64,000 bases of DNA from an uncultured bacterium (GTDB lineage: Bacteria > Bacillota_I > Bacilli_A > RFN20 > CAG-826): assembly GCA_949299335.1 (NCBI GenBank), contig CASGAD010000011.1:29162-93161 (forward strand). Reading direction: 5' to 3'. The notes under the pieces were generated by a model, which did no database searches, was not told where the DNA came from, and worked only from the letters and a program-made list of their open reading frames with translations. Below, piece by piece: positions 4,973 to 63,667 of the stretch. A program made the position numbers and the translations under genes. Every line of letters begins with the position of its first letter. The first letter of the stretch is position 1.

Positions 4973-5055
4973 TTTAAACTTAAAAAACCGAATTTATTCT
5001 ATTCTCAATTTTATTATGCTACTATAAAAATAATCTCTTTTTTGGAGGCATATAT

Positions 5056-9516: not shown

Positions 9517-10032
9517 ATGGAAGCAAATTTTTCAGATTATATTTTAGAGTTTAAAAAGGGTGAAATGAGTCATTTTGATGTTTTTTATAACGCATTAAAG
9601 GAAAGAATATTTTATAACATTTTTGCTTTGACAAAAAATTATGACATCAGTGAAGACTTGCTCCAAGATACCTTTGTGAAATTTTTAAAAAATATACAAG
9701 AAGTTGATGAAAGTGATAATTTGGTAGGTTTATTGATGGTCATGAGCAGGAATTTGACACTCGATTATTTTAAAAAAAATAATAAATTTTTGCAGCTTGA
9801 TGAAACGATTAATCATCCATCTACTAATGATGAGCATAATTTAGATAAGAATATTATATTAGGAAAAGTAAAGGAAATTTTAAAGCCGAAGGAATTTGAG
9901 ATATTTACTTTGCACGTTCTTAGCGATTTAACTTTTGATGAAATTGCTAAATTAAAAAAGAGGCCATTAGGCACAATCACGTGGGCGTACAAAAACGCTA
10001 TTAAGAAAATAAAGGAGAATATTGTATTATGA
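9517..10032 (+). CDS. ECF-type RNA polymerase sigma factor (sigma-70 regions 2 and 4 only)
   Basis: 171 aa. DLLQDTFVKFLKNI resembles region 2. FEIFTLHVLSDLTFDEIAKLKKRPLGTITWAYKNAIKKIK is a region-4 helix-turn-helix. Confidence 0.7.
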   Translation: MEANFSDYILEFKKGEMSHFDVFYNALKERIFYNIFALTKNYDISEDLLQDTFVKFLKNIQEVDESDNLVGLLMVMSRNLTLDYFKKNNKFLQLDETINHPSTNDEHNLDKNIILGKVKEILKPKEFEIFTLHVLSDLTFDEIAKLKKRPLGTITWAYKNAIKKIKENIVL

Positions 10033-36810: not shown

Positions 36811-36840
36811 AATAAATAATAAATTTAAAATTAAAAAACT

Positions 36841-36869
36841 AAATCTGAGATTTAAAATCTCAGATTTTG
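36841..36869 (+). terminator. Rho-independent terminator after the large lipoprotein gene
   Basis: AAATCTGAGAT-ttaaa-ATCTCAGATTT hairpin followed by TTTT. Confidence 0.7.
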
Positions 36870-36878
36870 TGCTATAAT
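36870..36878 (+). promoter_or_regulatory. Extended -10 promoter element (TGcTATAAT) for the metallopeptidase-lipoprotein operon
   Basis: TGCTATAAT lies 30 nt upstream of ATG 36908 with the GAGGAAAG RBS between. Confidence 0.5.
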
Positions 36879-36907
36879 ACGTGTATTTTTGAGGAAAGAA
36901 AGTGTTT

Positions 36908-41878: not shown

Positions 41879-41881
41879 TTT

Positions 41882-43885
41882 ATGAAAAAATTTCTATCTA
41901 TTATATCTTTTTCTTTCTTACTTTTTGGAAGTTTAACTTCTTGCGGAGATAGTGATGTCGGAAATGATACAAGTAAATACCCTACTCCAAAAGGTGCTCT
42001 ACAAGAAGCGTTTTATAAATTGAAAGATAATAATTTTACTTTATCTTATGAAGATTCTTATGCTGCTATTGGTATTAAAAGAAATCAAGAAACTAAATAT
42101 ACAACTTATTCACTTGAATCAAACGGTGACTTAGGATTCAATGGCTATGCTCAAAATGATGATTGTGTTTTTTCTTATAACATTGTTGATAATGAAGTCG
42201 TAAGTGGAGTACCAGTTATTGATTATAATAAAGGAATCATGATTAAGGATATCTATGATTATCGTGATGGGCTCGAAGATTTTGATTATACAATATTGCC
42301 TTCTACTTATAAAAGTGGTGAAGAATATAATTATGTTTTTGGTGAAAACACAAAAAACGATGAACTTATAATTTCAGTCTTTTTAAGAATGAATTATAAT
42401 CCATCTGCTTTGCCTCGTGAATTGACAATGAAAGTTGTTGCTGGCAATTTACAAATTAGTGCAATTACTAATTATTATGAATTACAAGATGCCTATGATT
42501 CTTGTAATGTTGTTGCTTATGATGTAGGAGAAACTGAGAATACTATAATTAAAAAATACCTTGATGATGGCTTGACTTCTAAAACTCCTTTGGATCAAAA
42601 GTTCTTCCATTTAATCGCGCCATATTTAGAATCTTATAATTATAAGACAACAATTGATGCTAGAAGCCTTAAAACCGAAGATGGCATGGGGTATGAAACA
42701 TTTCTTCAAGATCAGTATTTTACTGAGAACGCCATAATTTATGATACTTTAAGCGACAATTCTAATGTTGTGACTGGGGACCTTCAAACTGGCCTTGGCT
42801 TAGTATGTAATTTCTCAATGAATAGCATAGATGCTGATAAAATTGATATTACATACACACCTCCTACACAAGATGGCGAATTTTATACTTATTTATATGG
42901 TGAATATTTAACATATTCAATGGCTTCTTTAAATTTTTCAAATTTCGTTGGATATGTTGATGATACAAAAGAAAATTCATATTATATTACTGACTCTCAA
43001 ACAATTAGTATTTTAAGTTATATTTGCCAATACGAAATTAACGATACAGATAGAGCCGTTAGAAGCTTACGTTTAGAAGTTGATGATTGGAACAAGAATG
43101 AATTTACATTATATTTTGATATTTATAATCGTTCTACAAATTTAGATAAAGGTGAGTTAAAGGTTAAATTTAGTGATGTAAACAATGTTTCAATGCCTGC
43201 AGTTGAGCGCTACTTAAATATTGGTGGTAAGGCTTCCGAACAAAATTTGGATACTTTGAAATCAGTTTTAAATAAATTTAAGAGTAATAATTACTCCATG
43301 GATATTTATGGAGGTTTTGGATTAGCAAAAGCTTATTTTACTGAAAATTATTATTATTTTGAAACCTATGGAAGCAAAGCTAATAACTATGGCTTCATTA
43401 AATTAGATGGTTCGATATATGAGTTCTCATTAGTTTATAATAATGACAATGAAATAACTGATATTTCAATCGACAAGAGTAAAGATTTAGTAGATGAAGG
43501 TATGCAATTGCCTGGCTGCGGAGCCTTCTATGGTAGTGATGATGATGCTTTCTATTTCTCTTGTTTTGATGAAAGCATATATGACTATGATGAATATGAG
43601 CAAGATAATATTTTTGGATATAGTTATTGGAGAAATAAAACATCAGGACTAAGTCAAAAGATTCTAGATTATTTTTCACCTAATAACACTGTAAATTTAC
43701 CACAAGGTAGCGGATTTATGGTTAGTGATGGTGGGGATGATAGTTATGATACAAGAGTAACATTAGTACTTTCGTATAGTAATGAAAACGCCACGCAATT
43801 TGGAGCTTATATGGCCACTTATTATGATATTGATGGTACAAGTTTTGATTATTTAGATAATTTTATATTAGAAAATAATAAGTGA
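41882..43885 (+). CDS. Lipoprotein (667 aa), unknown function, same operon
   Basis: SLTSCGDSD lipobox. Starts 3 nt after the upstream stop. Confidence 0.55.
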   Translation: MKKFLSIISFSFLLFGSLTSCGDSDVGNDTSKYPTPKGALQEAFYKLKDNNFTLSYEDSYAAIGIKRNQETKYTTYSLESNGDLGFNGYAQNDDCVFSYNIVDNEVVSGVPVIDYNKGIMIKDIYDYRDGLEDFDYTILPSTYKSGEEYNYVFGENTKNDELIISVFLRMNYNPSALPRELTMKVVAGNLQISAITNYYELQDAYDSCNVVAYDVGETENTIIKKYLDDGLTSKTPLDQKFFHLIAPYLESYNYKTTIDARSLKTEDGMGYETFLQDQYFTENAIIYDTLSDNSNVVTGDLQTGLGLVCNFSMNSIDADKIDITYTPPTQDGEFYTYLYGEYLTYSMASLNFSNFVGYVDDTKENSYYITDSQTISILSYICQYEINDTDRAVRSLRLEVDDWNKNEFTLYFDIYNRSTNLDKGELKVKFSDVNNVSMPAVERYLNIGGKASEQNLDTLKSVLNKFKSNNYSMDIYGGFGLAKAYFTENYYYFETYGSKANNYGFIKLDGSIYEFSLVYNNDNEITDISIDKSKDLVDEGMQLPGCGAFYGSDDDAFYFSCFDESIYDYDEYEQDNIFGYSYWRNKTSGLSQKILDYFSPNNTVNLPQGSGFMVSDGGDDSYDTRVTLVLSYSNENATQFGAYMATYYDIDGTSFDYLDNFILENNK

Positions 43886-43895
43886 GGTTAATAAA

Positions 43896-46757
43896 ATGAG
43901 AAAGAGTTTTTTAGCTTTAAGTTTGTTAGTTGCTATTGCACCAATTGGATTAGTACTTAATTCTTGTAGCAATGATAATGTTCAAAATGAAGATAACATT
44001 ACAGGTGTTGAGATTTCTGGACCAATTTGGGTAAATGTAGGCAGTAGCATTACATTGAAGGCTGACGTCATAGGAAGCGATGATGATTTAGTTAACTGGA
44101 AGGTAAATGATGAAACAATTGCTACCATAGATAATGATGGAAAATTAACTGGTATTAGTGAAGGTGAAGTTGAAGTCACAGCCACATCAGTTGCTGCGCC
44201 TGAATTTTCTGGTAAATATACAGTTTCTATAAAAGGTATACAGTCTGAAGGAATAGAACTAGTTATTTTATCTGATGATCCAGATATTAAAATCGAAAAT
44301 GGCATTTATCGAATTCCTGGTGGAAAGGAATTTAAAATTGGCTATAAGTTAACTAATGAAAGCGCAAGTAAGCCAACAAGTGTTGCTTATTCCTTTTCTT
44401 TCGCTAACGGAGATTCTGCGACAAGTTTACTTTGTGATATTGAATTACAAGAGGATCAAACTGCTATAGTTAAATTTAATAGTGTTTTTACTGGCGGTGT
44501 TTTAACTGTCGCAGCAAGATATACTTCTTCAATTAATCCAGAATTAAAACACTCTATTTCTGTTGAAAGCTACGACAAAAATAGTGATAACGATGCAAAA
44601 CTTGAGGATATTATCGAAAATATTAAAGAGAAAGAATTGTCAAGCTTAACTAGTGCTCATAGAAAAGTTATTACTTTAAATGAAACTTCGAATAGTGGAG
44701 TAAGTGAAATAAACGAGAACTTCGAAATTTATGATGGTGCTGTATATAGTAGTAAATCTACAACTATTGACGATGAAACTACAAAGGAAAATACATATTC
44801 GACAGTTGATGCTACTAACAATGCGTTCTATTTATTCTCTTATAATAATGATAAAACTATTGATACTATTTATATGAATGAGGTTTATGATGTATCAGAA
44901 AAAGATATTTATTTAGAATATTCTAAATTGCCTCATTTTATAGGAAAAGAGTTGCCATCTTTTGGATTTGGTTCATTATTGAATTCAATGTCGTTTAATG
45001 ATACATATGAAGGCGGTGATGCTTTTGGCAATTTTGATGCGAAGGGCAATGCTACTTATACTTTCAATTCAAATAACGTAGTAATAAAAAGTGAATTTAT
45101 CAATGAATCTCAAAACACTATTGATTTATCTTTGGAATTTAATTATTCGTCTAGTTATGAATTAACTGATTATGAGTTTGTATATTCTGTAAAGCTTAAT
45201 GGTGAAACAGAATCTAAAGTTTATTATCAAGAAAATGGTAGTAACTTTGTTTATGGTGATAAAGAAATCGACACCGATAAAGACATTGATATAAGTTTAT
45301 ATTATATTAAGTCTTTTAATGTTGAATATATCGAAAATTATTATCCTGAGGATAATTCTAGATATGAATATATTTCGCACGAAGTTGATTCTGAAGGCAA
45401 TGATGTTTATTCTTTAACATATGATCATTCATTGCCATTACAAATTAGACAAATTGTACCTAACACAGGAAGCACTTTAATTGATGTTGCTAAAGTTGTA
45501 GCAAAAACTACTGATGCAGAAACGAAAAATTATTATATTTATGAAGATGGTTCAATTGTTATTTCTGCACCAAAGAACGAGGATGGAGATTTCTTCGAAT
45601 GCACTACAACTGTTGAATTCGAAACTAGAGGTGGCGGCAAAGATAAGGTTTTAATCAATTGGATAAAACCAGATTTAACTGGAATTAAATTTTCATATTC
45701 TAATAGTAGTCAAATGCCAGAGAACACATTTACTTTCCCATCTATTAGAGCCTATCAAAACACTGCATATTTTTGGTTAAACCCAATACCTGATGATTCT
45801 ATATACAATTTCGGAATGAAAGTTGTTGAGGGTGATGAAAGTGGAATAAAATTAACCAAATATGAAGATGCAGCTAATATGGATAGAGCCCCAAGAGGAT
45901 CATATGCTATTGACGGAATTAAAGTTGGAACTTATACATTCTACTTCTATGTTGAAGGATATGAAGAAATTAAAACTCAAAATTATACCATTACTGTTTT
46001 AGAACCTATAAGTGTTGATGAATATAAGAGCAATTTAATTGGCAATACATACTTATACACAACTGGTATAAGTAAATTTGAATTAACTTTTGCATCCGAA
46101 ACAGACATGATTTTAAAAATGCCAACTTATCTTGCAGATACAACTAGTGGAGGAAGCGTTACAACTGTTGAAGAACATATTTCATATAAAATTAACGAAG
46201 GACAAGTAACTATTGACACTGATGGCGTAGACAAAGTTAACCAAATCTTTGAATCAACCGACGGATACTTTGAATCTGCATATGGTGGACCAATTGAAAT
46301 TAGCGATGATTTTACATCAGTTGGAATCAAATTAAGAATTAGAAGTGATGCTGAAGGCGATAAAGCCAATAATAGTTATAATGTATACACATTTACCAAA
46401 GTAGCTGATTTAGATGGCTTGGCAGGTAAAAAAGTTGAAACACAAGCGTTTATTACTGATTATGGTATGAGTAAATTTACTTTATCATTCTTAGATGATA
46501 CAAATGCTATGTTAGAAGTATATTCAGCAAATAATGTTTTTATTGGTGGTTTTACTTTTACTTATCAATATGACAAAGAAAATAATCAATTTATTGCAAG
46601 TAACGTGCTTTTATCTGACAACTGTGTCGAAGGTTTTGCTTATAAAGATATTTCTTTAATTTATGGAACTAATAATTTAAGAGTCTCGATATTAATTCCA
46701 AATCAATATTATGTTGCAACAGTCAATGCTGATTTTGATTTAAGTAAAGCTATATAA
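43896..46757 (+). CDS. Large lipoprotein (953 aa) with N-terminal bacterial Ig-like (Big_2) domain
   Basis: LVLNSCSNDN lipobox. ITGVEISGPIWVNVGSSITLKADVIGSDDDLVNWKVNDETIATIDNDGKLTGISEGEVEVTATS is a canonical Big_2 fold signature. Confidence 0.65.
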   Translation: MRKSFLALSLLVAIAPIGLVLNSCSNDNVQNEDNITGVEISGPIWVNVGSSITLKADVIGSDDDLVNWKVNDETIATIDNDGKLTGISEGEVEVTATSVAAPEFSGKYTVSIKGIQSEGIELVILSDDPDIKIENGIYRIPGGKEFKIGYKLTNESASKPTSVAYSFSFANGDSATSLLCDIELQEDQTAIVKFNSVFTGGVLTVAARYTSSINPELKHSISVESYDKNSDNDAKLEDIIENIKEKELSSLTSAHRKVITLNETSNSGVSEINENFEIYDGAVYSSKSTTIDDETTKENTYSTVDATNNAFYLFSYNNDKTIDTIYMNEVYDVSEKDIYLEYSKLPHFIGKELPSFGFGSLLNSMSFNDTYEGGDAFGNFDAKGNATYTFNSNNVVIKSEFINESQNTIDLSLEFNYSSSYELTDYEFVYSVKLNGETESKVYYQENGSNFVYGDKEIDTDKDIDISLYYIKSFNVEYIENYYPEDNSRYEYISHEVDSEGNDVYSLTYDHSLPLQIRQIVPNTGSTLIDVAKVVAKTTDAETKNYYIYEDGSIVISAPKNEDGDFFECTTTVEFETRGGGKDKVLINWIKPDLTGIKFSYSNSSQMPENTFTFPSIRAYQNTAYFWLNPIPDDSIYNFGMKVVEGDESGIKLTKYEDAANMDRAPRGSYAIDGIKVGTYTFYFYVEGYEEIKTQNYTITVLEPISVDEYKSNLIGNTYLYTTGISKFELTFASETDMILKMPTYLADTTSGGSVTTVEEHISYKINEGQVTIDTDGVDKVNQIFESTDGYFESAYGGPIEISDDFTSVGIKLRIRSDAEGDKANNSYNVYTFTKVADLDGLAGKKVETQAFITDYGMSKFTLSFLDDTNAMLEVYSANNVFIGGFTFTYQYDKENNQFIASNVLLSDNCVEGFAYKDISLIYGTNNLRVSILIPNQYYVATVNADFDLSKAI

Positions 46758-49268: not shown

Positions 49269-49355
49269 GGCCCAGTGTCGAAATTGGTAGACGAACTTGA
49301 CTCAAAATCAAGCGCTCTCGCGGGCGTACCGGTTCGAGTCCGGTCTGGGCCACCA
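49269..49355 (+). tRNA. tRNA-Leu (anticodon CAA), class II with long variable arm
   Basis: Acceptor GGCCCAG/CTGGGCC. D-loop with the AATTGGTAGA element, anticodon stem CTTGA/TCAAG and loop CTCAAAA (CAA). 15-nt variable arm, T-arm ACCGG-TTCGAGT-CCGGT, discriminator A, encoded CCA. 87 nt. Confidence 0.95.
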
Positions 49356-50206: not shown

Positions 50207-50521
50207 GCAAAAATAATATAATTATTTTTCTTAGCTTTCAAATGTTTGATAAATAATTTATGAGTTTAATTGAATAGAATTTGCTTATTTCTTTCTTCAA
50301 TAAGTTTTTCTATTTTATAAAAAAATAAAAGTTAACCATATTAAATTTGTATTAAAAATATAATCAATAAACTTTATTTTATTAGTTATTTTGATAAATA
50401 AACACGCAATAATTAAGTATTTTATAAAGAAAAAGATATTTTTGATTTTTATATTAGTTTTATATTTAAATATTTTAAGGTTTATAGAAAAAAGTAATCT
50501 TAATCTATCAGGAGGGTGATT

Positions 50522-51986
50522 ATGAAAAAGAAATTTTTAAGTTTATCATCGATTTTTTTAGGTGTTGTTTCTTGTTCACTAGAAGCACAAGTTCCGCCTA
50601 CTATAGATGAAACGCCAGATGATAATTCATCTATTAATGAATAAAATCCAACAAACGAAAGCACTAAGGACAATTATTTACCAGAGGCAGCCTTAAAAAA
50701 GTTACAAGGGGAAATAGGGCTTTACTCAAATGACGTTCAAAGAGATATTAAGTTACTATATCTTAATGGTGAATGGAGTGAAGACCAAGCTAGAGTAGAA
50801 ACAGACGAACACTTCATTTCCTACTTTAAAGATGAATTTTATTTTGATTTACTTCAAAGATGGACTGAAGATGATGTAGTTTATGAAGACCCATTTTCTT
50901 ACGCGTTTAAACGAGGAGAAGGAGACCATCCTTATATGTATTCTGGGGTCAATATGAAAAATGAACTCGAATATACTGAGTACGTTACTGCATATGGAAA
51001 TAAACAACATTGTTTCTTTGATGATTATTTTGACAATCCGTTTGATGATGTCTCACGTTACAATTTTGTTTTAAATGATGATGGAAAATATGTTTGTACA
51101 TCTAGCGCTATTGCTAATTCAATAGTTAATTCTGTATTTTTCACTGAAGAAATGATTTTTACAGCTGAAAATGTTTATTTAACTGTTGATGATGATAATA
51201 ATGTTTCATTGTACGCTGAAAAAAAGAGCTGTTTCTGAAAATAGCCAAGTTGTCTATAACTATAATTATAAATATAGTGGGACATTTACAATTGTTGATC
51301 CTGTTAGACCAAATCTTGAGGAAAATTTATATACATCTAATGAAGACACAGATAAATTAAAAGAAAGATTAAATGCTTTAAATACTGAACCTTATCTAAA
51401 TATAAAAATTGAATCCAGTGTTGAAGGTTGTGATGGAATGGAGTACTTCCTTTCTAGAGAAGAAGGAAAAGAAGCTTTCCTTTATCCAAAAGGATATGAC
51501 TTTGGATACTATGAGAATTCAAGTGATGAAAATGTAATTTATAGATTTAAAGTTTAAAGTGATAATATAGCTAGAGGAGAGAATATTTTTTATTACACTG
51601 TTCCTTCCTCAGGTTTGACTTACTATTTTGTTGATATTGAAGGTATAAGTTTATGCTTTGATTCTTTCGCTAGTGAGATTTTCACTTTTAATCCAGTTGA
51701 TGGTTACTATCAAACAGCTGAAACAAGCATGCGTAAAGAAGTGGCTAATGAATTAGGACCATGCCCAGAATTAAAATTTGATTTTAGAAACATCAGTACA
51801 TTCTCTAGATTATATCTAACAGAGACTGGTGGATTAACAGTACATAATAAGGTAATTTATTCAATTGGTGGAACAATGATAAATAATGAATATAAGATTC
51901 ATATTGAAAAGGGTAGTAAAGATGATATTAGTTTTACAACTGCCTTTGATGAAAAAGCCACTGAAAAAATAACTGGAAAACTTTAA
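50522..51986 (+). pseudogene. Lipoprotein gene disrupted by nonsense codons and a homopolymer frameshift
   Basis: MKKKFLSLSSIFLGVVSCSLEA.. (lipobox VVSC), then an in-frame TAA at 50642-50644. The same frame continues open to 51238 (..NVSLYAEKK). An A7 tract at 51219-51225 shifts into the frame of ORF 51186-51557 (..AVSENSQVVYNYNYKYSGTF..). A TAA at 51555-51557 is followed in the same frame by an ORF to 51986 that lacks a start codon. Confidence 0.6.
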
Positions 51987-52761: not shown

Positions 52762-53136
52762 ATGAAACTATTTCATTTTATTAGTAAGATAGTTCGAATG
52801 GGTGCTGCTTCGGGAGGAAAGCGAATTGCTTATGCGATAGGAAATGCAATTATTGTCGCTATTGCATTTGCTGCTGGTTATTTTATTTACACAATGTATA
52901 GTAATTTAGGTAATGCAGGTACTAATTTTGCTATTTATATCGTTGGAATTATAGTTTTAGCAATTATTGGAGTAGCTGCCTTTTTTGAAGGTGTTATTTG
53001 CCAAATTGCTTTAACTATTTTCTCTTTAATGGGGATTATTGTTTCAAGGGAAAGATTAGCAAATTTATTTGCATTTTTGATTACAATAGCGACTTATGCA
53101 GCAATTATAATCACTGGTGTAATATTATTAAGTTAA
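52762..53136 (+). CDS. Small hydrophobic membrane protein (124 aa)
   Basis: Three or four TM helices; 9 nt after the previous gene. Confidence 0.45.
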   Translation: MKLFHFISKIVRMGAASGGKRIAYAIGNAIIVAIAFAAGYFIYTMYSNLGNAGTNFAIYIVGIIVLAIIGVAAFFEGVICQIALTIFSLMGIIVSRERLANLFAFLITIATYAAIIITGVILLS

Positions 53137-53158
53137 GAACAAAGCTAAATTATTTATC

Positions 53159-53189
53159 AAAAAAGTGCCATAAATATGGTACTTTTTTT
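53159..53189 (+). terminator. Rho-independent terminator
   Basis: AAAAAGTGCCAT-aaat-ATGGTACTTTTTTT (one G.U wobble). Confidence 0.65.
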
Positions 53190-53349
53190 CTTTTTAACAA
53201 AAAAATAAGTTTTTAAAAAAATGAATATTAAAAATAAACAAAAACTAAGCTTAAATGAAACTAAAAAAATTAAAATAGTATTAAGGTTTACGATATTCCT
53301 ATCACTTAAAGTTAATTTAAGTTAATAATCATTTACGAGAGGAAATTTT

Positions 53350-55590
53350 ATGTTAAAAGAAAGAATTCATAGAAATTTTAGGTTGTTTTTTTGTTTGTCA
53401 TTTTTTGGTGTTTTATTGCTTGTTTCTTGTAGTGGCACTAATGAAATTAGTGAAGCTAAAACATTTGAATTTACTGAAAGCGAGATAAATATTCTAGTAA
53501 ACGAAAAATGTGAAGTAAAAGTTGAAGCTAGTGAAAATATCGATTTACTTGAAGACATTGTTTATTCATTTAATGGAACTGATGAACTTACATTAACTAA
53601 TAGCGAAACCGGACTAAATATTGAAGGAAATAAAGAAGGAAGTTATATAGTTAATGCAAAATATAAAGATGATGAAGAGATAATCACTTCCTTAATGGTT
53701 AATGTAAATACCGCAAAAGATGAATATGAATATAAATTGTGTTTAGATACTTCAGCTACTAAAACAAAATATTTAAAAGGTGAGGAATTTACTAGTGAAG
53801 GTTTAGTTGTTTACGCTAGTTTATACATTAACGGAGTAGAAAATGAAGATTATCGTTTTTATTTAGAAAACTATATTATTCCATTTAATGATGGTGAAGT
53901 CTTAAATGAACTCGGTGAATTCGAAGTTGTAATAAACTCTGATCCATATGGAAAAGTATCTTATACAATTAGTGTTTTAGAAAGTTATGAAGAAACTAAT
54001 TATGAAATAGACACAACTAATGCAACTAAAAGTTATTTAAAGAATTCCTCTTTCTCAACCTATGGCTTAAAAGTTTATGAAATTAAGACTAAGTATTATC
54101 TAGATTCTACTAATAACAAGGTAATCGAAGAGCATAAATCAGAAGTAACAAATTATAGTGTTTCTTTAGCCAGTGGAACTAAGTTAGATAGTAATGGAAT
54201 TTATGAAATTATAGTTGAAATAAACGGATTTAAAGATTCATTTAATATCACAGTCTATGAAAGCGATTCAACAATTAAGGAAGTTGCTACTAGCTATATC
54301 AATACTAAAAATATTGGCTTAGTCATTAATTCAACAATTAGCACAGAAGATAATGTCTATGGACTAAATAGGCATATAACTTATAAACAAAATTATGTAG
54401 ATATTAAAGAATATCAAAAGAGTAGTCGAGAAGATTATTCCCTTGATGTAATTAATGAAGAATACGGGCTTCTTAAAGATGGAAATAATAATAGTTTTAC
54501 TTATTCAATAAATGAAGAGACTATTAAAGTTAATGAGTTAGTAAAACAAAATACATCTTCTCTTTGGGACATTCTAGATTACGCTAATATAAGTAGTTTC
54601 AAAGTATTTGAAAGTAAAGATTTCCCATTAATAACTTTAAAAGATAATGAACATTATTATAAAGAATTCATTAATAGAGGGACTTTAAATGATTCAACGA
54701 TTAGTTCTTATCCAATAATTGAAGGAGCCTTTAAATTAGCTAAGTTAGATTTATCGCTTTATGAATTTGTTTCTAGTTATGAAGTAAGTGTTAAAGATAG
54801 CTTAATCGATATAAAAGTGAACGTTGATTACTTTGGGTACATAGAAATTTCTACAATCCCTCAAAGTGAAAATAATGATCTTGAATTAATAAATAACGCC
54901 ACAAAAAGCAAAGATTTTACATTTAGTGAAGAGGTTAATAATAGTGTAACTTCTATATTAGAATTAATGAAATTAGATAATTACACATTTAACTCTGGTA
55001 GTGGCATAGTTCAATATTACAACCCAAATTATTTCTATGTACATTATGATCCAATTTACGCATTAGCTGGATTAACTTCAATTGGTTACTTAAAGGTTGA
55101 AGAGCCAGTAGGAGAACTAGATAAAGCAGGAATTTATTCATTTAAAGTTAATGAAAATGGAAGTGTAATGACTTTAGATGAATCAAGTTTGACGTTAGTT
55201 TATGAGGATACTTCTTTAATTAAGTATTCTTCATTATTTACCCAATTTGTGCCAGGGTATTTATCTAATTCCTTTAAATCCTTAATGAATGATCCATTAA
55301 GTTTAGCAACATTTAAAGTAGTAGAAGGGACGAACAATGCTTTATTTTCTACTAACGCAGATGTTGGAGAAACGTTTATGAATTACTTCTTTGGTGAAGG
55401 TGAGTCAGATAATAGAACTAACGCTATGAATTATGGTTATATTAATGGAGCAATGCTTTCAGCAGTAGATGAAAGTGGAAATAAAAATTTAATTCTAATG
55501 TGTGTAAGTAGATCACTATATGGTTATTCTAAAACATTAACCAATGTAGGAAATACTTACATTGAAAGTATTGATAATTTTATAAAGTGA
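53350..55590 (+). CDS. Surface lipoprotein (746 aa) with N-terminal Ig-like domains
   Basis: LLLVSCSGTNE lipobox. Big_2-like block FEFTESEINILVNEKCEVKVEAS...; Big_3-like block KYLKGEEFTSEGLVVYASLYINGVE... Confidence 0.6.
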   Translation: MLKERIHRNFRLFFCLSFFGVLLLVSCSGTNEISEAKTFEFTESEINILVNEKCEVKVEASENIDLLEDIVYSFNGTDELTLTNSETGLNIEGNKEGSYIVNAKYKDDEEIITSLMVNVNTAKDEYEYKLCLDTSATKTKYLKGEEFTSEGLVVYASLYINGVENEDYRFYLENYIIPFNDGEVLNELGEFEVVINSDPYGKVSYTISVLESYEETNYEIDTTNATKSYLKNSSFSTYGLKVYEIKTKYYLDSTNNKVIEEHKSEVTNYSVSLASGTKLDSNGIYEIIVEINGFKDSFNITVYESDSTIKEVATSYINTKNIGLVINSTISTEDNVYGLNRHITYKQNYVDIKEYQKSSREDYSLDVINEEYGLLKDGNNNSFTYSINEETIKVNELVKQNTSSLWDILDYANISSFKVFESKDFPLITLKDNEHYYKEFINRGTLNDSTISSYPIIEGAFKLAKLDLSLYEFVSSYEVSVKDSLIDIKVNVDYFGYIEISTIPQSENNDLELINNATKSKDFTFSEEVNNSVTSILELMKLDNYTFNSGSGIVQYYNPNYFYVHYDPIYALAGLTSIGYLKVEEPVGELDKAGIYSFKVNENGSVMTLDESSLTLVYEDTSLIKYSSLFTQFVPGYLSNSFKSLMNDPLSLATFKVVEGTNNALFSTNADVGETFMNYFFGEGESDNRTNAMNYGYINGAMLSAVDESGNKNLILMCVSRSLYGYSKTLTNVGNTYIESIDNFIK

Positions 55591-55599
55591 GGTGGGAAT

Positions 55600-57474
55600 A
55601 TGAAAAGAAAAAAGATACTTGCGATTAGTAGTGCTTTATGTCTTACATTTAGCACACTTGTGTTGGCTTCTTGTAATACCTCAACTGATGTAGTTGAAGA
55701 AGTTGAAGACGAAATTAGTTTGAGTGCAACTACTAATACACTAAAAGTAGGCGAAACAGCCACAATTGAAGTTTCCACTACTTATGATAAGACAACTTTA
55801 TTATGGGTAAGTGAAGACGAAAGCGTTGTCACAGTAAGTGGAGGAACAGTTACTGCTGTTGGTGAAGGTAAAGCAAAAGTATATGCTTATCCAAAAGAAA
55901 ATTTTGATGATTATACGTATGTTGAATTTATTGTTACTAGTGAAGCAACTGCTGGAGAAACTATTAACGAGCTTGCTATTGATGCAACAAATGTTAAAAC
56001 AGATTATAAGTTAGGTGAAAATTTAGACTTAACTGGACTTGTTGTTACTGTTGATGGAGCAGAAGTTAGTAATTATTCAACTAATCCAAGAAATGGTACT
56101 ACTTTACAAGTTATTGGAGAGATGGAAGTAGTTGTTTCTTATAGTGGATGCGAATCAGTCTCATTTACTATTAAAGTAGAAGAAAATCCAATTGATACAA
56201 CTTTATACGACTTGGCTGAAAAATTAAGCACAACCAAAAACTATAAGTATGATGTTGAATTATTTGGAAAAATTGAAGGAAGTGATGGGACAATTCAAGA
56301 TGGTTCACTCAAATACTCATATACATTTAATGAAACAAAATTCTATTTAAAATTTACTGCTTTAGATGAAATTTATGAGGATTATGATTTTGGCTATGTA
56401 AACACTGAAAAAGGTGTTATGAAGTATAAAATTGTAGATGAAATTGTCACTCCAATTTGCTACGAATCACATCAAAAATATGATTATAGAGAAGTCAGTG
56501 CTTATAAAGATGAAAATGTATTAACTCTTGAAGGCTTCCCATTAAGGCAAACTAGTGGATATTACTTAGTTACTGACAACGATTTAATTAATGATATTGT
56601 CAGTAAAGCCGATAGTAACGCATCAATTGTTTATAACAATATGAAATCAGTAAAAGGCTATGTAATAAGTGAAACCGCATTCAAATTTGTTGTTGATTGT
56701 GGAAACGTTGGACATTTAGAAGTCACTTATAGCGATATTGGTACAGCTGATGTTAACGGAGTTGAACAATATTTGACTGATAATGGTGATGAAATTGCCA
56801 TCGATAGTGAATTAACTACAATTTTCAATAAAATAAACGCTAATAATTACACAATTGCTCTTGGTACATTTACAAATGCTTCAGGAGTAGAAAAGAATGC
56901 TGGATACAAGTACTACACAGAAAACTATTATGTTTACTTATATGAAGATGAATATATTGAGTATTATAATGCAAACGCTGGAGAAACCGCTAAAGAGATT
57001 GCAAGTTGTGGACAATTTATAAAAGATGATGTTGTTTATGATTTTACAATCGGGAAGAACGATAATAATGAGCCAGTTATCGAAACTGTAAATGCCTCAA
57101 CAGATACTATTGAAGATTTCTATCTAAATGGTGGTTATATTTCAACATTTGATGCCTTAGATGAAGCAAATATTGACATGTATGCTCATGAAACTATTAC
57201 AAATACAACATCTGAAGGCTATGTTGTTACGGGCGATTCGTTAACATATGACTTCTATGATTATTTAGGTTTATCACTTGAAACATTTGGAGTTATTCCT
57301 GCTGAATTCGCTTTATATCATTATAAAGGTACAGTCGAAGCTCTAGATCAAATAGCTTTAATCGAAATTGTATTTGATATGAGTGGCAAATATTATGCCT
57401 TAGCAACATATTTAACTAATTTAGGTTATACATCCTATGAATTAGTTGAAGATTATATGGCAGCGATGGAGTAA
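55600..57474 (+). CDS. Surface lipoprotein (624 aa) with Big_2 and Big_3 Ig-like domains
   Basis: LVLASCNTST lipobox. LKVGETATIEVSTTYDKTTLLWVSEDESVVTVSGGTVTAVGEGKAKVYAY (Big_2). DYKLGENLDLTGLVVTVDGAEV (Big_3-type). Confidence 0.65.
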   Translation: MKRKKILAISSALCLTFSTLVLASCNTSTDVVEEVEDEISLSATTNTLKVGETATIEVSTTYDKTTLLWVSEDESVVTVSGGTVTAVGEGKAKVYAYPKENFDDYTYVEFIVTSEATAGETINELAIDATNVKTDYKLGENLDLTGLVVTVDGAEVSNYSTNPRNGTTLQVIGEMEVVVSYSGCESVSFTIKVEENPIDTTLYDLAEKLSTTKNYKYDVELFGKIEGSDGTIQDGSLKYSYTFNETKFYLKFTALDEIYEDYDFGYVNTEKGVMKYKIVDEIVTPICYESHQKYDYREVSAYKDENVLTLEGFPLRQTSGYYLVTDNDLINDIVSKADSNASIVYNNMKSVKGYVISETAFKFVVDCGNVGHLEVTYSDIGTADVNGVEQYLTDNGDEIAIDSELTTIFNKINANNYTIALGTFTNASGVEKNAGYKYYTENYYVYLYEDEYIEYYNANAGETAKEIASCGQFIKDDVVYDFTIGKNDNNEPVIETVNASTDTIEDFYLNGGYISTFDALDEANIDMYAHETITNTTSEGYVVTGDSLTYDFYDYLGLSLETFGVIPAEFALYHYKGTVEALDQIALIEIVFDMSGKYYALATYLTNLGYTSYELVEDYMAAME

Positions 57475-57486
57475 AGGAGAAAAAGT

Positions 57487-59730
57487 ATGAAAAAGAAAAT
57501 TAGAGTTTTAGCATTATCAAGCTTAATTGCTTTTACTGCTTTTCCAATGATGTCATGTGCAACTCAAGAAGAAGTTGTCGAGGTAGAAAAGACTGATAAA
57601 ATTGTTATCAGTGGAATGAAAACATTAAAAGTAGGTGAAAGTTGCACGCTTACTGCTAATTTTGAGGGTACTGCGAAAACCATTAAATGGTTATCAACCT
57701 CTCCAGAAATTGCAACTATTAGTGAAGAAGGAGTCGTTCAAGCAGTGGATGAAGGTGAAACGACTATAATTTGTCAAGCTACTGAAGATGCTAAAGTAAG
57801 AGCTACTTGTCAAATCAAAGTTTATAAAGAATTCGAAGATACAACCTTATACGTCAAAGTTACTTTTGTTAATTATGATGGAACAGTAATTGATCAACAA
57901 ATAGTTGAAAAAGGAAAAACCCCAACTTATGAAGGAGCAACACCAACTAGAATTAGTGATGATAATAATGGTTATGCTTTTAGTGGATGGGATAAAGAAT
58001 TTGGTGCAGTTTATGAGGATACAACATATATTGCAACATATGAAGTAGTTCCTTTAAGCGAATTTGCTTTTGCAGTTGACACCGTTAATGGCGGATATAA
58101 GGTCGTTAGTTATACAGGCGATAAAACTGAGATTCAAATTCCTGCTACATTCGCTTATAGAAAAGTTGTTTCAATTGGCGATTCAGCCTTTGCAAATAAT
58201 ACAAAACTTACTAAAGTTACCTTACCAGAAGGACTTAAAGCAATAGGTAATAAAGCTTTCTATGGTTGTAAAGCTATTACTGATATGAATATTCCTTCAA
58301 CGGTTACTACTTTAGGAGAAAGCTCATTTGAAGAATGCTCATCGTGGACTACAATTCTTACTCTCAATGATAATGTAGTCGATATTCCTGCTAGATGTTT
58401 CTATCATTGTGCTGGATTATCAAGAATTGAAGGACACAAGAACTTAGAAACTATTGGACGTGCAGCTTTCGGAAATTGTTATGCACTAGTCTTCTCTTTT
58501 ACAGACAAGATTAATCATATTGATGCATTTGCTTTCGAAGCAAATAGATGCTTGTCTTATCTAGAATTACCAGATAGCATTACTTATTTAGGTGAAAGTG
58601 TTTTCTGTCATTGTACTGGTTTATTTACATTAAAGTTACCAGCTAACTTAGAAACAATTGATTATGAAAAAGGTGGTTATCAAGCCTTAACATTAGGTTG
58701 TACTTCTTTATATCAAATTACAATTGACGAATCTAATCCTAATTTTATGATTGATAAGAACATTGCTATTTATAATAAAGATGGAACTATCTTATACGCA
58801 GTTGCTCCTATAGCTACTGGGGTTTATAACGTTTTAGATACCTGCCAAGAAATTAAGGGTAGTGCTTTCTATAAATTTACTGGAACTGGAATCAACATTC
58901 CTAAATCAGTTACTCAAATTGGAACTTGGGCTTTCTGGTTATCAGAAATACAAACAGTCACATTTGAAGATGGTGGAACTACATTAACAATGTCAGGAGA
59001 TTGTTTCCAAGGTTGTGATAAGCTCACAACTGTTACTTTACCAGATCATTTAACCGCAATTCCTAATAATTTATTTAGATATACACCATCAGTTGAGACA
59101 GTTAATTTTAGTGATAAAGTTACAAGCATTGGAACTTATGTATTCTATAATTGTTCCAGATTAAGAGAAATTGAATTACCAAGTGGATTAACTTCAATCG
59201 GAACATATGCTTTCTATAATACTGGTATTGAGGATATTACAATTCCAAGTGGAGTCACAGTAATTAATTCTAGTGTCTTCTATAGTTGTAGCAATTTAAA
59301 GAATGTTACTTTTTTAGGAAAAGTTACTTCTATTGGCACCAGTGCATTTAGTTATAGTGGACTTGAAAACTTTGTCATTCCTAATACTGTTACAAAGATT
59401 AATAACAATGCATTTAGATTCTGTTCTGAATTAAAATCCATTACCTTACCAACTGCTTTAAGTGGTACTTCTGCATTTGGCTCTTATACATTTGGATCTT
59501 GTACAGCGTTAGAAGAAATTACTTTCGGACCTGGATTAACCGATGATGAGTTAGGTTCTTGGTCATTGACAGTTCCAGCTAATACATTTCGTGATGATTC
59601 AAATATTAAGACAATTAATTTTAGAGGAAGTGAAACTGCTTTTGCTAAAGTTACTGTTAAAGATTCAACTTTATTAGAATTAGTAAATAGTGGCTCAGTA
59701 GTCATTAATTACAATGTTGATATGGAGTAA
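57487..59730 (+). CDS. Surface lipoprotein: Big_2, Listeria-Bacteroides repeat and BspA-type leucine-rich repeats (LRR_5)
   Basis: PMMSCATQEE lipobox. Big_2 (LKVGESCTLTANFEG..). YVKVTFVNYDGTVIDQQIVEKGKTPTYEGATPTRISDDNNGYAFSGWDKEF fits the Listeria-Bacteroides repeat. Long series of ..IP.SVT.IG..AF..C..L.. ~23-aa repeats of the BspA/LRR_5 type. Confidence 0.7.
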   Translation: MKKKIRVLALSSLIAFTAFPMMSCATQEEVVEVEKTDKIVISGMKTLKVGESCTLTANFEGTAKTIKWLSTSPEIATISEEGVVQAVDEGETTIICQATEDAKVRATCQIKVYKEFEDTTLYVKVTFVNYDGTVIDQQIVEKGKTPTYEGATPTRISDDNNGYAFSGWDKEFGAVYEDTTYIATYEVVPLSEFAFAVDTVNGGYKVVSYTGDKTEIQIPATFAYRKVVSIGDSAFANNTKLTKVTLPEGLKAIGNKAFYGCKAITDMNIPSTVTTLGESSFEECSSWTTILTLNDNVVDIPARCFYHCAGLSRIEGHKNLETIGRAAFGNCYALVFSFTDKINHIDAFAFEANRCLSYLELPDSITYLGESVFCHCTGLFTLKLPANLETIDYEKGGYQALTLGCTSLYQITIDESNPNFMIDKNIAIYNKDGTILYAVAPIATGVYNVLDTCQEIKGSAFYKFTGTGINIPKSVTQIGTWAFWLSEIQTVTFEDGGTTLTMSGDCFQGCDKLTTVTLPDHLTAIPNNLFRYTPSVETVNFSDKVTSIGTYVFYNCSRLREIELPSGLTSIGTYAFYNTGIEDITIPSGVTVINSSVFYSCSNLKNVTFLGKVTSIGTSAFSYSGLENFVIPNTVTKINNNAFRFCSELKSITLPTALSGTSAFGSYTFGSCTALEEITFGPGLTDDELGSWSLTVPANTFRDDSNIKTINFRGSETAFAKVTVKDSTLLELVNSGSVVINYNVDME

Positions 59731-59741
59731 AGGAGAGAGTT

Positions 59742-61748
59742 ATGAAACTAAAAAATAAGATTACATTAATTGGATTATGTGCGTTATCTCTTGGCTTTAT
59801 GGCAAGTTGTTCAACGACGACTCCTGTTAATGATGAAACTAGTGATGTCGATAAAACTCCAGCTGCAACAATTGCTATTGAAGGTACTAATAAAATTGAA
59901 GTTGGTGGAGAAACTCAATTATCTTTAAAAATGTCTGGAATAGAAAGAAGCTCATTTGTTTGGGAATCTTCAGATACTAAAGTTGCTACAGTTAAAGATG
60001 GCCGAGTTATTGGTATTGCTCCAGGCACTGTCACTATTAAAGCTACTTCTATCGAAGATTTAACCCTTGAAGCTAGTTACGAAGTAACAGTAGTTAAAGA
60101 TCTTGATGGTAAATATAAAGTTAGTTTTGTTGATTATGATGGAACTCTATTATATGAAACTTATGTTGAAGAGGGTGGCACAGCTACTTATAAAGGAAAC
60201 GAACCAACTAGATTAAATTCAGCTAGCGTTTTATATAAATTTATCGGATGGGATAAAGATTTAACTGATATTAGTGCTAATACAGTAATTAAAGCTGTCT
60301 ATTCAGAAAGTGATTTTGGCGACTATTTCTTTGAAAATATCGGCACAACTTATAAATTTATTGGCTATAGTGGTGAAGATGAAACTTTAGTTATTCCTAC
60401 TTCGTTTAATGGAATTGCTGTTACATCTATTGGTAGCAAAGTTTTAGCAGGCAATACTTTTGTTAAAAAGATTGTCATTCCTCAAGGAATCGATACAATT
60501 GAGGCAAATGCTTTTGAAGCTACTGAAAATTTAGAAGAAGTTACAATACCTAATAGTGTTTACACTTTTGGAGATAAAATCTTCTACAATTGCAAAAAAT
60601 TAACTACCGTTACAATTGAAGAAGGTGTTAATAAACTTAGTTCAGGTATGTTCCAAGCCTGTGAAGCTATAAAGAATATTGAATTACCAGATACTTTAAC
60701 AGAAATTGGTGAGAACTGTTTCTTTATGAGCGGATTAGAAGAAATTACTATTCCTGAAAATATAACTATGATTGGCGCTAGTGCGTTTTCAAATTGTAGC
60801 AATTTAGTTAGTGCAACAATTAAGGCAAACATCACTGATTTACCTAGTAGTTTATTCTCATCATGTAAAAATTTAGCTACTATTAATTTTGAAGGAAACG
60901 TTACTTCCTTGGGCATGGCATTTGCGATGAGTTGTGTTGCTTTGACTTCAGTTACTTTCCCAGATACGTTAACAACAGTAGGTGATAGAGCTTTCTCAGG
61001 ATGTACAGCACTTGAAACTATTACAATTGGCAAAGAAACATCTGATTTTGGTGAAGATTCATTAAAAAATGTTCCGGCATTAAATGATGGCGGAAGTGGT
61101 ATAAAGTTTAAAGAAGATGATACTACTCATAAAATTGAAGATGGAATTTTATATTCAAAAGATGGAACTAAGATTACTTATGTTTTAGATAAGACAGTTG
61201 TTCCTACAACCTTAAATTTTAAAGAATTGGGTGTAGTCGAAATTGGAAGCTATGCTTTCTTGGATACAAAAACTATCACAGCTATTGATTTAGATGGAGT
61301 TAAATCTATTGGAGCACATGCTTTTGATGGATGTTCTGGAGTAACTGGTGAATTAGTAATTCCTGAAAGTTGTGTAGATGTCGGCTTAGGCGCCTTTGAG
61401 TACATGAGCAAAATCACAAGTATTGATATTCAAACATTATTTGGTGAATCAAAGACCATTCCAGAAGAAATATTTAGAAATTGTACTAGTGTAACTACAG
61501 CTCATATTCCATCTGGAATTACAACTATTAGTTTAAGAGCATTTGGTTGGATGGGAACTAAATTTACATCAGTTAACATTCCTAAATCAGTTACATACAT
61601 TGGTAACTATGCTTTCCAATCAAATAAAAATTTAATTATTACTTACGAAGGTACAGAGGAAGAATGGAAAAATGTTGTGTTAGATGGAACTTATGCAATT
61701 CCTAGTGCACAACTTAAGACAATGGTCTTCGCTGGAGAAGGAGAATAA
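59742..61748 (+). CDS. Surface lipoprotein paralog: Big_2, Listeria-Bacteroides repeat and BspA-type LRR
   Basis: FMASCSTTTP lipobox. Same architecture as the upstream gene (YKVSFVDYDGTLLYETYVEEGGTATYKGNEPTRL..YKFIGWDKDL), then LRR_5 repeats. Confidence 0.7.
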   Translation: MKLKNKITLIGLCALSLGFMASCSTTTPVNDETSDVDKTPAATIAIEGTNKIEVGGETQLSLKMSGIERSSFVWESSDTKVATVKDGRVIGIAPGTVTIKATSIEDLTLEASYEVTVVKDLDGKYKVSFVDYDGTLLYETYVEEGGTATYKGNEPTRLNSASVLYKFIGWDKDLTDISANTVIKAVYSESDFGDYFFENIGTTYKFIGYSGEDETLVIPTSFNGIAVTSIGSKVLAGNTFVKKIVIPQGIDTIEANAFEATENLEEVTIPNSVYTFGDKIFYNCKKLTTVTIEEGVNKLSSGMFQACEAIKNIELPDTLTEIGENCFFMSGLEEITIPENITMIGASAFSNCSNLVSATIKANITDLPSSLFSSCKNLATINFEGNVTSLGMAFAMSCVALTSVTFPDTLTTVGDRAFSGCTALETITIGKETSDFGEDSLKNVPALNDGGSGIKFKEDDTTHKIEDGILYSKDGTKITYVLDKTVVPTTLNFKELGVVEIGSYAFLDTKTITAIDLDGVKSIGAHAFDGCSGVTGELVIPESCVDVGLGAFEYMSKITSIDIQTLFGESKTIPEEIFRNCTSVTTAHIPSGITTISLRAFGWMGTKFTSVNIPKSVTYIGNYAFQSNKNLIITYEGTEEEWKNVVLDGTYAIPSAQLKTMVFAGEGE

Positions 61749-61753
61749 AAAAA

Positions 61754-63501
61754 TGCGACACATCAAAAATTTATTAATTTTAACATTATTATGTAGTTCT
61801 GCAGGGTTTTTAACAAATTGTTCATGCAGTTCTAATGTTATTGCTGAAGATTCAATATCAATAAAATTAGATGAACCTTATTTAAACATGAGTATAAACT
61901 CTACTCAAACTATTGATGTAACTGTTTCTTTTGATGATGTCGCAATTTCAATTGATAATTCAAATATTGTCTCAGCAACTTATTTTGAAAAACAGCTTAC
62001 GCTCACTTCTAGTAATAATAGTGGTACATGTCGAATCAAAATATATAAAGAAAGTGATGAAACAATTTTTAAAGATATTTTAGTAGTCGTTAGTAAAGAA
62101 ACAACGACTACTGAATTATCAATATTAAATGAAGGCACAACTACTTATAAGCTTGGAGAAACATTCACTAGAAACGGATTAGAAGTTGCCTTAGTTACTA
62201 AGGAAGGCGAAAATGTAATTAATACTTTAAGACTTGATGATTATGAAGTGTTTTTGTCAATTGAAGAGGGTACAACTTTAGATACAATTGGCAAAAGAAC
62301 AATATATGTTTCAACTTTGGATCCTCAACTTACCCCAATTAGTTATGAAATAGAAGTTGTAGAAAATGAGCTTTATCCATTAAAACGACTTACTAATATG
62401 TTTAAAAATGAGAATTATACTATTAGTTTTAGAGCAGATTATAATTCTTTAATGACAATTGAAGGTAAATTATTATTCAATCAAAATTACTTTATTAATA
62501 CCTATATGGATCTTTACTTTGCTAAAGATAATAATGGAGTTTTTAAATTTGAATATAGTGATGATACATCTTCAACAGCTTCAATTGTCACCAGTAATGG
62601 CTATTTTGATGATGTAGAAAATGCTACTTTATACGATGTAGTCGGGCTTTTTTCATCAACTATCGGATTAAGTGATTTTAAAGATAGTTATTATGATGAA
62701 GTAAAAGTAAGTGGAAGTACATACACTTTTTCTAATAAAGATTTATTAACATTATTTTGGAATAATACTTTAGGATTTAATGGAGTTGCTTCTGAATTAA
62801 ATTTAAGTGTAGAAGAAGATGCCATTTCTTATGTAATTTATGGAAAATTAAATAACGGATTAGTTTTAACTTTTACTGGAGCTATCTATGATATTGGTGA
62901 AACTAAAGAAGAAAGAATTGAAACTTATTTAAATCATACTCATAGCGTTAATAAAATTAAAAATACAACCGTTGATACATTAGTTAGTGGCTTTAGAAGC
63001 TGCAATTATACTTTCGCTGAAGACAGTTTTAATATTTATGTCACCCCAACTTTTGTTTTTATTGAAGATGCTTTTGAAGAAGGTAGTGGAACGGGATTGA
63101 TCGAAAGAGATGATGGAGTATATAACTTTACTATAACTGATAAAGTTTTAACTTTAGGATCTAAATCAAGTGGATTAAACTCTATTGAAGATAGTATTTA
63201 TAACTTTGATAATTATTCATTATTTGATGAAAGTGAAGTTACTTCTTTCTATACATCTTCATATTATGGAGGTTATATTAACTTTAATACAGTCGCAGCA
63301 AAAGAATTAACAGCCAATTTCTTTAAGATAATATATGGCGATTTATCTAATCACACACCTTTTGCTTCCATATTTAGTAGTGATTCAACATTAAGTAAAG
63401 CTACTTTAGATGTTTATTTAAAAACATCAAGTGGTGGTATGACTTATGTGGAAGGTGATTTTATTAATATTGGATCAACTAGTGTTGATTATATAAAATA
63501 A
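61754..63501 (+). CDS. Surface lipoprotein (582 aa) with Ig-like N-terminal domains
   Basis: Start chosen at ATG 61754 (MRHIKNLLILTLLCSSAGFLTNCSCS, lipobox; RBS GGAGAAGGAGAA) rather than the listed 61684, which overlaps the upstream gene. Big_3-like TYKLGETFTRNGLEVALVTKEGENV. Confidence 0.6.
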
Positions 63502-63520
63502 TAATTAGAAACTTTATTAA

Positions 63521-63550
63521 AAAATGGGTATTGGAAAATATCCATTTTTT
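63521..63550 (+). terminator. Rho-independent terminator closing the five-gene lipoprotein array
   Basis: AAATGGGTAT-tggaaa-ATATCCATTT hairpin followed by TTTTT. Confidence 0.6.
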
Positions 63551-63667
63551 AATAAAAAAACATAAGTTTTGCAGTGATTATTAATTAAAAGCAGACCTAG
63601 TTTTCATTACAATGTTGCTTTTTATTTTCTTTTGGTATTAAATTTTTAAGGTTGAGAGGGAGAAAGT

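Follow-up and report, generated by a model that had tools for sequence, protein, structure and literature searches.

The window analysed here is a 64,000-nucleotide stretch of contig CASGAD010000011.1 (assembly GCA_949299335.1; positions 29,162 to 93,161 of the forward strand), from an uncultured bacterium of the GTDB lineage Bacillota_I; Bacilli_A; RFN20; CAG-826. It has a GC content of 25-34% and carries at least 14 genes with a lipobox. Between 53350 and 63501 lie five co-directional open reading frames (ORFs) with a lipobox, all on the plus strand, which we named G1 to G5 and which are the subject of this work. Lengths are in amino acids (aa), and the domain contents, including immunoglobulin-like (Ig-like) domains and leucine-rich repeats (LRR), are those argued for below:

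G1, 53350-55590, plus strand: predicted lipoprotein of 746 aa, lipobox LVSC; three Ig-like domains, C-terminal part homologous with that of G2
G2, 55600-57474, plus strand: predicted lipoprotein of 624 aa, lipobox LASC; Big_2 domain, Big_3-like Ig domain, two LolA/LprG-like modules
G3, 57487-59730, plus strand: predicted lipoprotein of 747 aa, lipobox MMSC; Big_2 domain, Flg_new-like domain, long BspA-type LRR_5 solenoid
G4, 59742-61748, plus strand: predicted lipoprotein of 668 aa, lipobox MASC; Big_2 domain, Flg_new-like domain, LRR_5 solenoid
G5, 61753-63501, plus strand: predicted lipoprotein of 582 aa, lipobox LTNC; two Ig-like domains, C-terminal part homologous with that of G2

The genes are tightly packed. 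A preliminary description of this DNA had reported five co-directional genes separated by 6-12 nucleotides (nt); the arrangement was borne out, while the gaps measured were 9, 12, 11 and 4 nt. Each gene has its own Shine-Dalgarno (SD) sequence, and the stop codon of the preceding gene lies within or adjoins it. The longest ORF of G5 begins at 61684 and would overlap G4; the ATG at 61753 (MRHIKNLL...) is the more plausible start, with GAAGGAGAA as a Shine-Dalgarno sequence just 5' of it and in agreement with the orthologues. Two hairpins bracket the genes:

53159-53188, plus strand: terminator-like hairpin with a T-run (fold -13.6 kcal/mol, z -5.6)
63513-63556, plus strand: AT-rich hairpin with a 20-bp stem and a flanking T-run (fold -20 kcal/mol, z -8.1)

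The first, which closes off the bPH/TM gene pair upstream, sets the 5' limit of the five-gene unit, and the second is the probable operon terminator. Given the gaps of 4-12 nt, the SD sequence before each gene and the hairpins at both ends, we infer that G1-G5 form one transcription unit. An Rfam search found no element within or upstream of it.

Each of the five proteins starts with a signal of basic and hydrophobic character that ends in a lipobox cysteine within the first 27 residues, so that a lipobox in every gene, as first described, was confirmed. The asparagine at position -1 of the G5 lipobox is atypical. The position of the cysteine is kept in the orthologues, and lipidation and surface exposure are predicted for all five.

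Domain assignments were judged against the Pfam gathering cut-offs (LRR_5, PF13306, 27.7 bits; Big_2, PF02368, 22.8; Flg_new, PF09479, 27; Big_3, 21.2). The LRR_5 assignment proved secure, scoring 375.8 bits in G3 (five stretches) and 272.7 bits in G4 (three stretches). In G3 the matches span most of residues ~195-735, the top-scoring stretch being:

59053-59436, plus strand: LRR_5 stretch of G3, aa 523-650 (Pfam)

The Big_2-like front that the preliminary description saw on all five proteins was recognised by Pfam in G2 (31.4 bits), G3 (29.5) and G4 (31.2). It was not recognised in G1 or G5, for which neither the whole proteins nor isolated segments gave a Big_2 match at E<=0.1; G1 as a whole matched no Pfam family at that threshold, and G5 had only weak sub-threshold matches (Big_3, 15.3 bits). 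In profile-profile alignments, however, the N-termini of G1 and G5 prove homologous to that of G2, from the signal peptide through Big_2 and the Big_3-like part (99.9% and 99.6%, respectively), and the Ig-like domains of G1 have diverged beyond the recognition of Pfam Big_2 and Big_3.

The second and third Ig-like domains of G1 (53731-54270, aa 128-307) gave sub-threshold matches to Big_3 and to Shr-like_HID, a haemoglobin-interacting domain (E 0.006 and 0.3). The NCBIfam model of the HupY/LrrG adhesin (NF047961) scored 97 and 87 bits in G3 and G4, far below its curated cut-off of 1250, as did that of Gli349 (NF045861; 66 and 57 bits against 1750); both scores are best read as similarity of the LRR region only. 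Together the Shr-like_HID and HupY matches make an unconvincing, faint echo of streptococcal heme receptors, and heme uptake was rejected as a lead since the matches are too weak and owe their scores to the LRR and Ig regions.

The Listeria-Bacteroides (Flg_new) repeat required a less direct route. The two candidate domains are:

57844-58041, plus strand: Flg_new-like domain of G3 (Pfam 19.2 bits, below the cut-off; bridged to Flg_new)
60108-60302, plus strand: Flg_new-like domain of G4 (Pfam 16.2 bits, below the cut-off; segment included in the profile described below)

Flg_new was the top or joint-top Pfam family on the isolated segments and was unreported for the whole proteins. It appeared at E<=1 in three of ten orthologous segments, with a best E of 0.0039, and direct searches of Pfam and of PDB sequences with the segment returned nothing above threshold. 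A profile of these ten segments (A6) nevertheless aligned in hhalign with 95.9% probability (E 5.5e-9) to residues 1065-1125 of P0060, a Clostridia-type LRR_5 protein in which Pfam finds Flg_new at 52.2 bits, best in the stretch 1064-1109. Because the profile bridges to a genuine Flg_new domain, we accept by transitive homology that the G3 and G4 segments carry a putative Listeria-Bacteroides repeat, while direct Pfam membership fails. The segment is among the best-conserved parts of both proteins, with 54-77% conservation across orthologues in G4. At the level of domains the preliminary reading, of Ig-fronted lipoproteins with two BspA-type LRR paralogues bearing a Listeria-Bacteroides repeat, was largely right.

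G3 and G4 had been described as tandem paralogues. They are paralogous, and their duplication is ancient, since they share only 28% identity over 658 aa (BLASTP). LRR_5 proteins are very common, with 2645 matches in the homologue search; the full G3 architecture, at a coverage of at least 97%, was found in only seven clusters.

The remaining three proteins belong together as well. By BLASTP alone G1, G2 and G5 are barely related to one another. With profiles enriched with orthologues, hhalign aligned G1 with G2 end to end (99.9%, E 1e-35, 578 columns), G2 with G5 over 540 columns (99.6%, E 3e-24) and G1 with G5 over the N-terminal 190 residues (98%). The alignments thus divide the five into two families of old paralogues, G1/G2/G5 and G3/G4, with the lipobox-plus-Ig front common to all.

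Pfam has no family for G1/G2/G5, and the PDB sequence matches of G2 are confined to its Big_2 part. An AlphaFold model of G2 from three sequences had a pLDDT of 31.8; adding 12 homologues from an exhaustive search gave a model from 15 sequences with a pLDDT of 84.7 and a pTM of 0.68. It comprises Ig domains at residues 38-113 and 122-194 and modules at 200-395 and 403-624, each of a helix and a long antiparallel sheet. The features of G2 are accordingly placed as follows (AF2, AlphaFold model):

55711-55905, plus strand: Big_2 Ig-like domain, aa 38-102 (Pfam PF02368, 31.4 bits)
55996-56178, plus strand: Big_3-like second Ig domain, aa 133-193 (17.1 bits, below the Pfam Big_3 cut-off of 21.2; beta-sandwich in the model)
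56197-56784, plus strand: LolA/LprG-like module A, aa 200-395 (AF2 helix, then long antiparallel sheet; Foldseek LolA 7z6w, LprG 3mha)
56806-57471, plus strand: LolA/LprG-like module B, aa 403-624 (AF2 model)

Foldseek matched the model to LolA (7z6w) and LprG (3mha), both with a probability of 1.00; the TM-scores are low, at 0.42 for LprG when scaled to target length. Further matches were LolA3, the Bacteroides lipoprotein BT2262 and BFA1, along with proteins built of serial Ig domains, among them the S-layer proteins EA1 and SbsB. A shifted hhalign match, of G2 residues 356-622 onto G5 residues 161-395 (82%), suggests that modules A and B are repeats of each other. Two genes further upstream in the window, g40190 and g41882, have this C-terminal G2 module and lack the Ig front (hhalign 96.8% and 97.4%), module A being homologous to residues 53-314 of g40190 and module B to residues 364-629 of g41882. 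Module B is the fastest-diverging part of G2, with 44% identity to the orthologue at locus L006 against 68% for module A.

The family is small. A phmmer search with G2 residues 196-624 against 1.84 billion representative proteins returned 18 proteins, 13 of them at E<=1e-10, and most of the 18 are 612-646 aa long, similar to G2. Only three proteins closely related to G2 emerged from a word-indexed search of 5.8 billion, and a homologue search with the full-length G2 alignment was dominated by Big_2 proteins and added no new family members. An un-annotated lipoprotein family, with an Ig stalk and two LolA/LprG-like modules, can thereby be defined.

The strongest evidence on the nature of the unit comes from other genomes, whose loci are designated here by L numbers. 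L001, L002 and L005 are from the same species as the window (99-100% identity), and L005, a 99% strain, holds the same five genes. Beyond the species, gene order and near-constant protein lengths are kept in six other lineages (L003, L004, L006, L011, L013 and L014) at 31-79% identity. L003 carries G1, G2 and the start of G3 at 75-79% identity, and L004 and L006 (the latter a metagenome-assembled genome, 'uncultured Bacilli bacterium', CALVXH010000011) carry the unit at 58-70%. All five genes are present in L005, L006, L011 and L013, and L003, L004 and L014 carry the part that their contigs cover. In the three most divergent of the six the identities to the window are 32-35% for G1, 31-34% for G2, 38-44% for G3, 38-49% for G4 and 34-38% for G5, with the following protein lengths in the order G1 to G5:

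L011: 723, 625, 834, 674 and 579 aa
L013: 765, 630, 772, 684 and 567 aa
L014: 743, 612, 760, 693 and at least 350 aa

G1 has orthologues in all six lineages and G5 in four (L006, L011, L013 and L014); across all orthologues the identity is 38-81% for G3 and 38-70% for G4. The best match of each window gene is its positional counterpart, cross-paralogue matches being much weaker; therefore the duplications that gave rise to G3/G4 and to G1/G2/G5 predate these lineages. The still more distant L015 and L016, with a G2 of ~25% identity, keep the order G2-like, G3-like, G4-like. Lengths are also uniform within clusters of G3 orthologues: 750 aa in all 15 listed of the 40 members of P0008, and 834 aa in 10 of 10 in P0010. 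The comparison of the locus across strains that had been proposed as a check on variability thus gave no change of copy number or presence in L005, and uniform lengths within clusters.

More lipoprotein genes adjoin the unit in some of these genomes. Directly upstream of it, L011 and L013 each have a gene for a very large lipoprotein (1387 and 1030 aa, at 1436-5599 and 2309-5401, respectively; faint Flg_new_2). This protein is ~24% identical to that of window gene g33613 (33613-36810), which lies 20 kb upstream of G1 at the head of the other lipoprotein operon of the window, and the two window clusters may once have been contiguous. Directly after the unit in L011 (16699-22505) are two more lipoproteins of 772 aa, one of them an end-to-end homologue of G1 (99.8%), which shows local gain of paralogues in that lineage; they are followed by an S8 peptidase of 1453 aa without a lipobox.

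Selection was assessed from ratios of non-synonymous to synonymous substitution rates (dN/dS; Nei-Gojobori estimates). Against L003, at a synonymous divergence (dS) of ~0.9, dN/dS was 0.125 for G1, 0.136 for G2 and 0.21 for the N-terminal part of G3, with 0.06-0.10 for flanking genes; against L006, where dS is near saturation, it was 0.25-0.28 for the lipoproteins and 0.08-0.14 for flanking genes. Against the 99% strain the five genes differ by 13 synonymous and 32 non-synonymous changes, which are too few to judge selection. The estimates point to clear purifying selection on G1-G5.

Scans for elements that might mediate switching were negative. Between 53100 and 63600 there is no homopolymer of at least 8 A/T or at least 6 G/C and no short repeat of at least five copies, and within the five genes there is no substantial tandem repeat or tandem-repeat coding block. 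Nor were there meaningful inverted or direct repeats; the longest stretch of DNA that any of the five genes share measures 42 nt (81% identity), the protein identities among them being ~27-36%. These homopolymer, short-repeat and inter-paralogue scans upheld the preliminary observation that no homopolymer or recombination site is visible.

We consider it probable, though well short of certain, that G1-G5 are one co-transcribed, fixed and vertically inherited operon of a narrow clade of uncultured low-GC gut Bacilli, and that their products act together. After export, each protein would be acylated on the cysteine of its lipobox and stay tethered to the outside of the membrane, where the N-terminal Ig-like (Big_2-type) stalk would bear a distal binding part away from the membrane. 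In G1, G2 and G5 this distal part would consist of one or two further Ig domains and then two LolA/LprG-like half-barrel modules, which may serve as ligand- or partner-binding elements. In G3 and G4 it would be the Listeria-Bacteroides (Flg_new) domain followed by the long BspA-type LRR_5 solenoid, presenting a protein- or host-binding surface as in BspA-type proteins. Because the five genes keep one order, each with an orthologue, down to ~31% identity, and the G2-G3-G4 core is kept further, we infer joint action of the proteins: they may form a complex on the surface or carry out the steps of a single function in adhesion or ligand capture. The evidence fits a stable operon in which selection has kept five distinct lipoproteins together.

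Several points weigh against this interpretation. Co-regulation alone might account for the conserved order even if the proteins do not associate physically, and lipidation and surface exposure are themselves predictions. The set is not strictly invariant, since L016 lacks a G1 upstream of its G2 homologue, and the product of the fourth gene in L015 and L016 is a Big_2 lipoprotein with no relation to G5 that BLAST can recognise. The lipoproteins evolve ~1.5-2x faster than the flanking genes. Furthermore, LolA-like lipoproteins need not bind lipid, as the Clostridioides difficile protein GerS, an allosteric activator of an amidase, demonstrates (bioRxiv 10.1101/2025.01.13.632879).

The modules of these proteins are known, and their arrangement in a conserved cassette of five lipoproteins is undescribed; for RF39 or Mollicutes, our literature search on the architecture yielded nothing more specific than general accounts of BspA-like proteins. 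G3 and G4 resemble BspA-type proteins (BspA of Tannerella forsythia, LrrA of Treponema, BspA-like proteins of Mycoplasma) in combining a long LRR_5 solenoid with Big_2, in their predicted surface location and in their host association. They differ in that Big_2 is N-terminal. Unlike expanded BspA-like families, of which 'Ca. Mycoplasma girerdii' has 26 copies (PMC4206474, where BspA functions are also summarised), they are only two, are old (28% identity) and have one-to-one orthologues. Like internalin B of Listeria they pair an LRR region with a Flg_new-type domain, a pairing that also occurs in many LRR_5 proteins of Clostridia (e.g., P0023 and P0060); unlike internalin B, their LRR is of the LRR_5 type and the Flg_new-like domain, which is below the Pfam cut-off and supported by the bridge only, precedes it. 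The modelled C-terminal modules of G2 match LolA and LprG in Foldseek and may be of the LolA/LprG/LppX-like fold, which GerS also has; LprG, LppX and GerS are themselves lipoproteins. In contrast to LolA, LprG and LppX, G2 has two tandem modules behind two Ig domains and, beyond Big_2, no sequence similarity to solved structures and no Pfam family.

A bolder form of the favoured reading is that three Ig-stalked, tandem LolA-like subunits and two LRR_5 subunits build one heteromeric surface structure, a clade-specific and undescribed machine for attachment or for the capture of hydrophobic nutrients. We think this unlikely, if worth stating. At whichever level the proteins cooperate, a cassette so stable and deeply conserved is a candidate for a defined surface apparatus of an uncultured gut lineage, and it could be used as a lineage marker.

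A specific sub-case of the co-transcribed surface set is nutrient scavenging, in which the LolA/LprG-like modules would hold hydrophobic ligands (lipids, sterols or similar, from host or food) while the LRR proteins dock the cell. The modelled fold resembles that of the lipid and acyl-chain carriers LolA and LprG, the organism is low in GC and rich in lipoproteins, a choloylglycine hydrolase gene is found just downstream in L001, and L013 has an ABC transporter with a Peripla_BP_2 binding protein upstream. We nonetheless rate it as rather improbable, given the low TM-scores, the protein-protein roles that LolA-like folds such as GerS also play, and the lack of any transporter consistently linked to the unit across loci.

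The proteins might instead be surface glycan-binding proteins that serve the glycoside hydrolases (GH) of the genome, comparable to the SusE/F-type lipoproteins of Bacteroides. Those proteins also have Ig-like stalks, so that the layout of a stalk with a distal domain is held in common; GH43, GH2, GH3 and rhamnosidase genes lie within the window, and Foldseek matched G2 to the Bacteroides lipoprotein BT2262. The GH genes, however, are at least 25 kb away and are unlinked in L011, L013, L014, L015 and L016, and Pfam found no carbohydrate-binding module in the five proteins. Because the linkage is not conserved in other loci, a glycan-binding role tied to the GH genes of the window is unlikely, and we give this explanation little credence.

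Least credible of all is the diversifying surface-lipoprotein repertoire proposed in the preliminary description, with paralogues exchanged, switched, gained or lost like Vsp, Vlp and Vsa of Mollicutes: co-directional lipoprotein gene clusters in a low-GC, lipoprotein-rich genome are indeed shared with those systems, and the many lipoprotein genes in two window clusters, their ~1.5-2x faster evolution, the extra paralogues that adjoin the unit in L011 and L015 and a broken lipobox gene at 50516-51986 that is absent from L003 and L006 all favour it, but it is contradicted by one-to-one orthology in a fixed order to ~31% identity, by dN/dS of 0.12-0.28, far below 1, by constant protein length among the listed cluster members, by a 99% identity strain with the same five genes and no change of copy number, and by the lack in G1-G5 of near-identical paralogues, conserved 5' cassettes, switch repeats, recombination sites, in-frame tandem repeats or any DNA repeat of useful length between paralogues (with no homopolymers, short repeats or tandem-repeat coding blocks in 53100-63600). 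The locus is a reminder that lipoprotein paralogues can cluster in a low-GC genome without forming a system of antigenic variation.

The rest of the window is also rich in lipoprotein genes. A second operon, at 33613-46757, has six lipobox genes. Two of them encode paralogous lipoproteins of the M6/InhA-like metallopeptidase type (36908-38641 and 38631-40193; 34% identical, with HExxH conserved), those at 40190 and 41882 carry the G2-type LolA-like module, and there is also a 953-aa Big_2 lipoprotein. The gene at 43896 (Big_2, 36.9 bits) had been counted with G1-G5 as the sixth member of one modular family; it does share a signal peptide and Big_2 with them, and nothing beyond these, and the lipobox genes of the window number at least 14, not six.

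The broken gene mentioned above begins with a lipobox start at 50516 (MIMKKKFLSLSSIFLGVVSC...) that stops after 42 codons and is followed by three ORF fragments in different frames (50936-51238, 51186-51557 and 51615-51986), so the region looks like a disrupted lipoprotein gene. The 99% strain L005 has the same fragments; L003 and L006 lack the region between their HAD and bPH genes. Kinship with G1/G2/G5 was considered and rejected, as the region has no significant similarity to their profiles.

Genes for an H+-PPase and a ClpB-type ATPase are also present in the window. A cluster of GH43, GH2, GH3 and alpha-L-rhamnosidase genes at 3551-27929, interspersed with the lipobox genes 20456 and 24310, suggests a plant-glycan utilisation locus, and a GHKL histidine kinase gene at 19037 stands beside gene 18306, which resembles a response regulator of L005. 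A 1002-aa GH3 of L006 was dismissed as evidence of synteny with the window, being a paralogue with only 37% identity, and no deletion of the region at 28-49 kb can be deduced from it. The only Rfam/ARAGORN match in the window is a tRNA-Leu(CAA) at 49269-49355. In L001, a contig of the same strain as the window, the choloylglycine (bile salt) hydrolase family gene occupies 9752-11002, immediately downstream of the operon, and is consistent with a gut habitat.

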